NCBI RefSeq assembly: GCF_053078305.1
Contig: NZ_CP166879.1
Strand: one strand, 5' to 3'
Length of the DNA stretch: 64,000 nt
Positions 14,663-15,342 of this stretch are shown piece by piece (position 1 is the stretch's first letter; the number at the start of each line of letters is the position of its first letter). Under the pieces are notes generated by a model. The model had not been told where the DNA came from and ran no database searches. It saw only the letters and a list, made by a program, of their open reading frames with translations. The position numbers were made by a program, and so were the translations under genes.

Positions 14663-14977
14663 TTAATTTTCCGAAGCAAATAACAGAGCATCCTCCAGAG
14701 CGGCCAAAGGATCTGCCTCCGGCTTATCCTCATCCTCGCCCCAGCAGAGCATGGCGTCCTTCAGTGCAACATTCATCCCCTGTGCCCCGAAAACCGCTTT
14801 CACGATCTGTGCATTACGGATATCCCCGCGCTCATCACCCAGCGGGGATACCCTGTCGAACTCCATCCACATCATCGCCTCGCTCGCACTCAGGCTGTGG
14901 CGCAGTTCGGATAAGGTGCGCCCCAGACGGAGCGCAAGTCGCATCAGAAAGCGAATTTCCGGGCGGGCTACTTTTTT
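14663..14977 (-). CDS. Tail assembly chaperone T-extension (expressed as G-T fusion by -1 frameshift)
   Basis: Track ORF 14663..14944 is in the -1 frame relative to G and open back to the slippery site. Confidence 0.65.
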   Translation of the reverse strand, partial: KKVARPEIRFLMRLALRLGRTLSELRHSLSASEAMMWMEFDRVSPLGDERGDIRNAQIVKAVFGAQGMNVALKDAMLCWGEDEDKPEADPLAALEDALLFASEN

Positions 14978-15342
14978 CTGGCCGACTCTGCATCAGCGAT
15001 CAGTTCCAGTGCCTGACGCAGCAAGCGGGCATGTACCGGACCATAGACGGCCAGCACCTGCTCACGGTCGTCCGGAGTGAACACCCGCTGCAGGTCCGTA
15101 TCACACAGGACATCGCAGAACAGCGTCACATCCGCTTCCAGGTTACGGCGGGTTTTCGCCACCACCGACAGGGTATCGTCATCCTCTCCATCACCATTGA
15201 GCACGTCCTGCCACAGATACCAGGCCTCTGCCGAAGGCTCCCGCAGCACCACGCTGACATTACCCCATTCCGGCACCTTCACCGTTTTATGACGAAACCC
15301 TGACAGTCTGGCCAGCGCCAGCGTTTTCAGATCCTTTTTCAT
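14968..15342 (-). CDS. Tail assembly chaperone G
   Basis: Internal ATG (MKKDLKTLALARL...) with AAGGGGA RBS in track ORF 14968..15390; position between major tail and tape measure. Confidence 0.7.
   Translation of the reverse strand: MKKDLKTLALARLSGFRHKTVKVPEWGNVSVVLREPSAEAWYLWQDVLNGDGEDDDTLSVVAKTRRNLEADVTLFCDVLCDTDLQRVFTPDDREQVLAVYGPVHARLLRQALELIADAESARKK
14971..14979 (-). promoter_or_regulatory. Programmed -1 ribosomal frameshift slippery site (A AAA AAG)
   Basis: G ends ...AGA AAA AAG TAG; -1 frame continues VARPEIRFLMRLALRLG... Confidence 0.6.

Follow-up and report, generated by a model that had tools for sequence, protein, structure and literature searches.

The tail chaperone genes G and T of an Escherichia coli lambdoid prophage and their probable programmed -1 frameshift

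We analyzed a 64,000-nucleotide (nt) stretch of contig NZ_CP166879.1 (assembly GCF_053078305.1), hereafter the window, whose positions are used throughout. The window is that of an Escherichia coli lambdoid prophage of the Shiga-toxin-producing E. coli type, and the phages closest to it are YYZ-2008, 2851 and many converting phages for the Shiga toxins (Stx) Stx1a, Stx2a and Stx2c, at 94-98% identity. Our subject is the overlap of two tail genes of this prophage, G and T, on the minus strand: positions 14663-15342 run exactly from the stop codon of T to the start codon of G. The same segment is present in 1245 of 5426 complete E. coli genomes. Inspection of the sequence alone had led to the proposal (the original prediction) that the two genes are joined by programmed -1 frameshifting, and here we examine this site, its relatives and its surroundings.

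Organization of the G/T overlap

The tail genes lie in the order major tail protein, G, T and tape measure protein, all on the minus strand, with the gene for a moron of 137 amino acids (aa) between T and the tape measure gene and, upstream of the major tail gene, head completion and connector genes recognized by Pfam. The major tail (tube) protein (15357-16142) carries a C-terminal Ig-like domain, matches the Pfam families Phage_tail_2, Phage_TTP_11 and Ig_3, and is named 'major tail subunit' by the NCBI Prokaryotic Genome Annotation Pipeline (PGAP). The 1080-aa tape measure protein (10880-14122, minus strand) matches Phage_HK97_TLTM (PF06120, 3.6e-88), TMP_3 and Tape_meas_lam_C. These two proteins would be the assembly partners of the T domain and the G domain, respectively.

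The G open reading frame (ORF; 14968-15342, minus strand) has 124 codons followed by TAG and gives the 0-frame product. Its ATG at 15342 lies 12 nt beyond the major tail stop codon and has GGGGA about 9 nt upstream. The protein ends in AESARKK, with the last three residues encoded by AGA (14979-14977), AAA (14976-14974) and AAG (14973-14971), and the 0-frame stop TAG (14970-14968) follows directly. This ARKK-stop end and the slippery heptamer A AAA AAG within it had both been proposed, and the minus-strand reading bears them out: the heptamer lies at 14977-14971, and its phase in G is X XXY YYZ.

In the -1 frame, a TGA at 14995-14993 is followed by an uninterrupted frame from 14992 to 14666, closed by TAA at 14665-14663. 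Only in the 22 nt of 14971-14992 (minus strand), the shift window, are both the G frame and the -1 frame open; the heptamer is the sole X XXY YYZ motif there. The description of the downstream ORF as lying in the -1 frame and open back to the slippery site was thus accurate, and no stop codon, the feature named beforehand as evidence against the proposal, falls between the heptamer and the T ORF. The first codon after the slip is GUA (14971-14969); from it to AAU, the T segment (14663-14971, minus strand) comprises 102 codons, followed by TAA. The resulting fusion, GT (14663-15342, minus strand), corresponds to join(15342..14971, 14971..14663) and has 124 + 102 = 226 aa. The product of the T segment is predicted to occur only as the C-terminal part of GT.

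Two other frames were considered in this region. The +1 frame was rejected as an alternative, being open for just 44 codons past the G stop and having no domain. On the opposite strand, an antisense ORF of 179 aa (14764-15303, plus strand) is longer than G; it is spurious, of a kind often seen in GC-rich coding sequence.

Profile searches identified both halves of the overlap. G matches Phage_TAC_1 (PF06222) over its entire length (residues 1-124 against positions 1-124 of 124; 1.6e-61; 206.1 bits with a cut-off of 25) and, in PHROGs, phrog_344 'tail assembly chaperone' (1.5e-46). It also matches PDB entry 2ob9, 'Tail assembly chaperone' (1.2e-45), which we take to be gp13 of phage HK97, and the equivalent gene is a 'phage tail assembly chaperone' in PGAP. 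The T segment matches Phage_tail_T (PF06223, 7.1e-20; 71.7 bits with a cut-off of 25.9), covering positions 1-70 of 73, and phrog_337 'tail protein' (2.3e-41). Neither G nor T had a match in NCBIfam. The tail chaperone assignment, also part of the original prediction, stands on the PF06222 and 2ob9 matches and on the position of the gene.

Conservation and published measurement of the frameshift

Phage HK97 has true homologues of this pair, gp13 and gp14. HK97 gp13 is 62% identical to G and belongs to the same family, PF06222, and the gene order and the HK97-type tape measure protein (PF06120) match those of the prophage. In the GenBank record (AF069529), gp14 is a two-piece coding sequence (CDS) 'translated due to a -1 frameshift', similar in length to the 226-aa GT. 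The aligned HK97 site reads CGG GAA AAG (that is, G GAA AAG) instead of A AAA AAG, and its stop lies six codons further on. HK97 also carries a moron, gp15, at the corresponding place, after T and before the tape measure gene, but gp15 is unrelated to the lipoprotein moron of the prophage.

The conceptual GT product was compared with phrog_14766 (224 positions), to which it aligned as one stretch (2-221 against 2-220; E 7e-85; 285 bits). When the halves were scanned separately, G covered profile positions 2-122 and T positions 125-220 (145 and 127 bits). Since the two halves abut on the profile, the predicted junction reproduces that of annotated GT fusions without a gap, and the claim that a -1 slip yields a GT fusion holds, for a product of 226 aa.

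The junction is also conserved at the nucleotide level. AGA AAA AAG TAG was kept in 80 of 80 near-identical viral loci found by tblastn, and the -1 extension had 102 codons in 79 of them. In the remaining locus, L046 (IMGVR_UViG_3300029191_000019), the extension has 319 codons; T appears here to continue into the sequence of another tail protein downstream, and a deletion is the presumed cause.

A more diverged set comprised nine phages from E. coli, Cronobacter, Klebsiella, Vibrio, Bordetella and Burkholderia, in which G is 32-100% identical. T lies in the -1 frame and is open across the G stop in all nine. The heptamer is A AAA AAG in five, and is found at the same position in vB_EcoS-689R5, Vibrio Pm34, Bordetella PHB09 and Burkholderia phiE125; it is G GAA AAG in two (HK97 and the Cronobacter phage), G GGA AAG in one (mEp390), and A GCA AAG, which departs from the X XXY YYZ form, in Klebsiella P7641. 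In these phages the -1 frame also keeps the pattern (V/A/F)xxPxxxFLM upstream of the ATG at 14944 at which T is annotated to start, a conservation that fits a fusion and would be unexpected for an untranslated leader.

A second scan centred on the mEp390 branch, based on seven G sequences, gave 80 further loci, 75 of them analyzable. T was in the -1 frame and open across the end of G in all 75, and the in-phase A AAG was invariant, at constant spacing to the T motif FLM. The heptamers were G GGA AAG (46 loci), G GAA AAG (19), G GCA AAG (5) and A AAA AAG (5). In this branch the stop followed the heptamer after 0 or 3 nt, and among relatives as a whole the spacing was 0, 3, 18 or 30 nt, so that direct adjacency of the TAG is no conserved requirement.

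By itself, the bare heptamer is uninformative: AAAAAAG occurs 28 times on the two strands of the window, against 12.6 expected. Specificity comes from its phase, its place and its consequence. To assess these, the genes of the window were approximated by a length-based set of 47 ORFs, in which the antisense ORF at 14764-15303 displaced G, and G was handled separately. In this set only one other A AAA AAG lies in coding phase (50795, plus strand), and its -1 frame closes after six codons; none of the other in-phase X XXY YYZ heptamers extends more than 39 codons past the stop of its gene. The G/T site gives an extension of 102 codons with a recognized domain. Our own naive arithmetic puts the chance of the exact heptamer at about 4e-4 (six in-phase positions in the 22-nt shift window); the point that the site exceeds chance is settled by its conservation and by a published measurement on the identical sequence.

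That measurement was made by Antonov et al. (2013, NAR 41:6514, PMC3711429), who used GeneTack to predict frameshift clusters and placed test cassettes between GST and MBP for measurement in E. coli. One of these clusters, 'Phage_TAC', has 41 genes and is described there as resembling an HK97 protein; two of its cassettes shifted frame at 7% and 6%. The first, of 75 nt (fs-gene 15618692, Supplementary Table S2 of PMC3711429), showed 7% ± 0.79 -1 frameshifting, which would correspond to about 13 G per GT. It is identical to 14923-14997 (minus strand), its single exact match in the window. The second (6%) has G GGA AAG as its heptamer and is similar to the mEp390 junction. The published test was performed in a reporter and not in a phage, but the sequence is the same. 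A frameshift reporter assay, one of the checks originally proposed, thus already exists for this exact sequence, and the finding is not new. Nothing about the site looks new: besides the assay, the HK97 homologue is annotated, and G/GT frameshifting has been known since Levin, Hendrix & Casjens 1993 (followed by Xu, Hendrix & Duda 2004, 2013, 2014; all via PMC5009743).

Mechanism and alternative explanations

Together, these data argue that the site is the programmed -1 frameshift of an HK97-type (gp13/gp14) tail chaperone pair in an E. coli lambdoid prophage, an interpretation to which we assign a probability of about 0.93. In the proposed mechanism, most ribosomes would make the 124-aa G and terminate at the TAG. 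With AAA and AAG in the P and A sites, a minority would slip back by one base, the single E. coli tRNA-Lys re-pairing with AAA AAA, and would read 102 further codons in the -1 frame to produce GT. Few heptamers in E. coli are as prone to shifting as A AAA AAG, because the sole tRNA-Lys of this species (mnm5s2U34) prefers AAA to AAG in pairing (PMC5009743). The slip is probably ribosomal rather than transcriptional.

The roles of the products can be proposed by analogy with lambda. Many copies of G and a few of GT would coat the tape measure protein, the G part of GT binding as well, and the T domain would bring in the major tail protein, after which G and GT would leave the finished tail. On this analogy, both proteins are probably needed for tails and absent from mature virions. 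In lambda, the G:GT ratio is about 30:1 and matters for assembly (PMC5009743), compared with the ratio of about 13:1 implied by 7% slippage at the prophage site, which falls in a similar range.

The original prediction had described the fusion 'as in lambda', which is correct in part. The architecture and mechanism agree: in both systems two ORFs lie between the major tail and tape measure genes, with a -1 slip near the end of G. The lambda slippery heptamer is G GGA AAG. Like that of the prophage, it ends in A AAG, and it operates at a low fixed ratio (PMC5009743). Lambda T matches PF06223 (54.1 bits), a family common to it and prophage T. Homology of G is the part that does not hold: at E <= 0.01 the prophage G has no match to Phage_TAC_2 (PF06894), the family of lambda G, and BLASTP detects no pairwise similarity between the two proteins (E = 3.3). 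G works like lambda G, yet lies outside the lambda gpG sequence family.

The E. coli dnaX gene (gamma/tau) uses the identical heptamer, A AAA AAG, with the same logic of tRNA-Lys re-pairing. Frameshifting at dnaX is about 50% with an upstream Shine-Dalgarno-like element and a downstream hairpin (PMC3711429), whereas the prophage site has 7% and neither element was detected. The 20 nt upstream, GCTGATGCAGAGTCGGCCAG, contain no GGAG, GAGG or AGGA core that could act as a Shine-Dalgarno-like stimulator. Folding covered 51 and 98 nt downstream: the nearest 3' hairpin was no better than in shuffled sequences (z = -0.52), and the longer, 98-nt fold gave z = -2.15. The consensus fold of the nine diverged phages contained only a six-pair helix, about 35 nt downstream, within strongly conserved codons and with no compensatory changes. 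A dnaX-like or pseudoknot-stimulated model was rejected, as no significant or covarying structure was found, in a search that covered hairpin folds and did not address pseudoknots explicitly. With no stimulator found, the efficiency would rest on the heptamer alone, which fits the low rate of 7%, and the slip probably requires no RNA stimulator.

A more specific reading of the family can be offered only tentatively. The in-phase A AAG might be its only fixed signal, with a 0-frame stop 0-3 nt away in most members, and the slip might then be essentially a single tRNA-Lys event, which we consider doubtful. It is equally speculative that slow decoding at the stop, and not RNA structure, helps the slip. 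It is likewise a conjecture, and in our view an improbable one, that the ratio depends little on the P-site triplet, which could then be AAA, GGA, GAA or GCA; the published 7% and 6%, obtained with two different heptamers, would fit this.

Several observations weigh against a programmed ribosomal frameshift that serves tail assembly in this prophage. The lack of a 3' stimulatory structure or covariation in the hairpin folds is one. RefSeq/PGAP and most phage records give T as an independent CDS. The GT protein of the native prophage is a prediction from the sequence. The GST-MBP assay reads the total change of frame, and ribosomal and transcriptional slippage cannot be separated by it alone. 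Finally, the portal gene is frameshifted in comparison with phage YYZ-2008, and the tail genes may no longer serve in making particles in this host.

The last observation leads to the alternative that survives best, namely an intact relic. On this view the sequence of the signal is still functional, but the prophage would be defective, and G and GT would not be used for tails in this host. This concerns current use and not the identity of the element, so it is compatible with the programmed frameshift; we regard it as possible but unlikely. Compared with gp54 of YYZ-2008, the portal gene has lost 1 nt from a G run and is split by this deletion, and PGAP tags the portal copy of the closest genome as 'frameshifted'. 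Several lambdoid prophages of this kind in O157 Sakai are scored as portal-defective (PMC2669165, Table 1). However, the remaining head and tail ORFs that were checked are all intact, and the portal state seen here is common, with half-ORFs that are usually intact, so that it may leave the gene active. Even when defective, O157 prophages are able to supply parts through prophage-prophage interactions (PMC2669165).

Much less probable is that T is a separate protein made from its own ATG (14944), with the overlap with G and the heptamer incidental. PGAP and several GenBank records place the start of a 93-aa CDS, 'phage tail assembly protein T', at this ATG, and the Met of the FLM motif is conserved. 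Conservation of this Met is no proof of a start codon, since the residue belongs to a conserved hydrophobic motif, and the ATG has no Shine-Dalgarno sequence at a suitable distance upstream. The residues of (V/A/F)xxPxxxFLM that precede the Met are themselves conserved across phages, the -1 frame is always open back to the in-phase A AAG, and GT is colinear across the junction with the annotated GT fusions of phrog_14766. Moreover, the cassette identical to the T junction shifts frame at 7% (PMC3711429).

The least probable alternative, that RNA polymerase stutters on the A6 run and adds one A so that some mRNAs encode GT directly, draws on the homopolymeric nature of the site (A8 in the relative vB_EcoS-689R5) and on a reporter that cannot tell the two routes apart in a paper that itself discusses transcriptional realignment on long A/T runs, but the same paper puts productive transcriptional slippage at runs of 8-9 or more A or T, against six here, and reports a similar rate (6%) for the mEp390-like G GGA AAG cassette (PMC3711429), and most family members (G GGA AAG, G GAA AAG and G GCA AAG) have no homopolymer while keeping A AAG, the signature of a ribosomal slip.

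Programmed -1 frameshifting at this site has consequences for annotation, in which its practical value lies. At present, T is annotated as a CDS of its own, of 93 aa ('phage tail assembly protein T' or 'tail protein'; 14663-14944, minus strand), with no ribosomal-slippage join. Records with a free-standing T include NZ_CP027586, NC_013008 and NC_011356, and G and T are likewise separate CDS in the RefSeq record of lambda. The RefSeq/PGAP entry for T should be the 226-aa ribosomal-slippage join given above, a correction that touches about 1245 of the 5426 complete E. coli genomes. In addition, the site is a secure reference point from which to interpret the other genes of the tail module and to recognize the moron inserted beside it.

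Neighbouring elements in the prophage

This moron (14186-14599 within flanks at 14123-14662, minus strand) encodes a 137-aa lipoprotein with a signal peptide, the lipobox LTGC, a weak PEGA match and a match to phrog_6823. The insertion, which separates T from the tape measure gene, has a GC content of 0.38-0.47, against 0.56-0.61 in the flanks. The gene is rare, being found in 4 of the 5426 E. coli genomes and 3 of the 80 related viral loci, where the others have a gap of 47-51 nt. It occupies the slot of the HK97 moron gp15, a proven superinfection-exclusion gene. Homologues of the lipoprotein that are 65-69% identical lie directly upstream of the tape measure gene in Proteus prophages whose own chaperone pair is unrelated, and another is located between a P22-type gp16 and mnt/arc in a P22-like E. 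coli prophage. P22 itself carries sieA in the gp16-mnt/arc region. Our guess is that the lipoprotein may have a phage-exclusion role. A promoter scan gave no convincing promoter for this gene.

A terminator-like hairpin, AAAACCUGC-UGCG-GCAGGUUUU followed by U residues, is present midway in the tail operon at about 14136-14165 (minus strand), 14-43 nt upstream of the tape measure ATG (14122). It was missed by a consensus terminator scan and was found by folding. Relatives without the moron have the same kind of hairpin and U run in their spacer, with stems AACCGC/GCGGTT and AACCTGC/GCAGGTT, and in HK97 'putative terminators' are annotated at comparable places.

The portal gene consists of two halves, 18826-20190 and 17606-18829 (minus strand; 454 and 407 aa), which meet in an ATGA stop/start overlap; the site spans 18826-18845. 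The split results from a run of five G (G5), compared with six (G6) in YYZ-2008, where portal is one ORF of 861 aa. Of 79 viral contigs matching this site, 42 are G5 and 37 are G6. Two different backgrounds of flanking sequence carry G5, G5 and G6 also co-occur on a shared background, and the half-ORFs are mostly intact in both states. The upstream frame of the G5 state ends in AAA AAA TGA here and in AGA AAA TGA on the other background, and a -1 slip of tRNA-Lys at AAA AAA TGA would restore the long form. The split could reflect decay, a hypermutable tract, or two separate coupled genes. The downstream half-ORF (17606-18829) contains 162-nt (54-codon) tandem repeats and has no convincing Pfam family; in its relatives (loci L178-L256), the number of codons after the landmark ELS is 295, 349, 403, 457, 511 or 565, in steps of 54 codons.

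Inside the tail module lies an OmpC/OmpF-type porin gene (9193-10347, minus strand; Porin_1, 5.9e-144), probably another moron. It is flanked by ORFs of 113 aa (10546-10887) and 246 aa (8285-9025), which we take, from their position and size, to be the minor tail genes M and L.

A cluster of tRNA-Met, tRNA-Arg(tcg) and tRNA-Arg(tct) genes is followed by a 331-aa ORF (31961-33231 for the whole, minus strand) with an adenine-methylase-like NPPF motif and no Pfam match, and then by a nanS-p-like esterase gene (28970-30937; DUF1737/SASA/DUF6645). In Stx-converting relatives, the toxin genes sit downstream of the tRNAs at the corresponding position; no stx genes were present among the window ORFs that we looked at. 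A phage integrase gene (50523-51548, plus strand) adjoins tRNA-Ser(cga) (51601-51690, minus strand), which is likely the attachment site. Beyond it, in the stretch 52682-61070, lie a tRNA-Asn gene and then an ORF of 2691 aa (52995-61070, plus strand).

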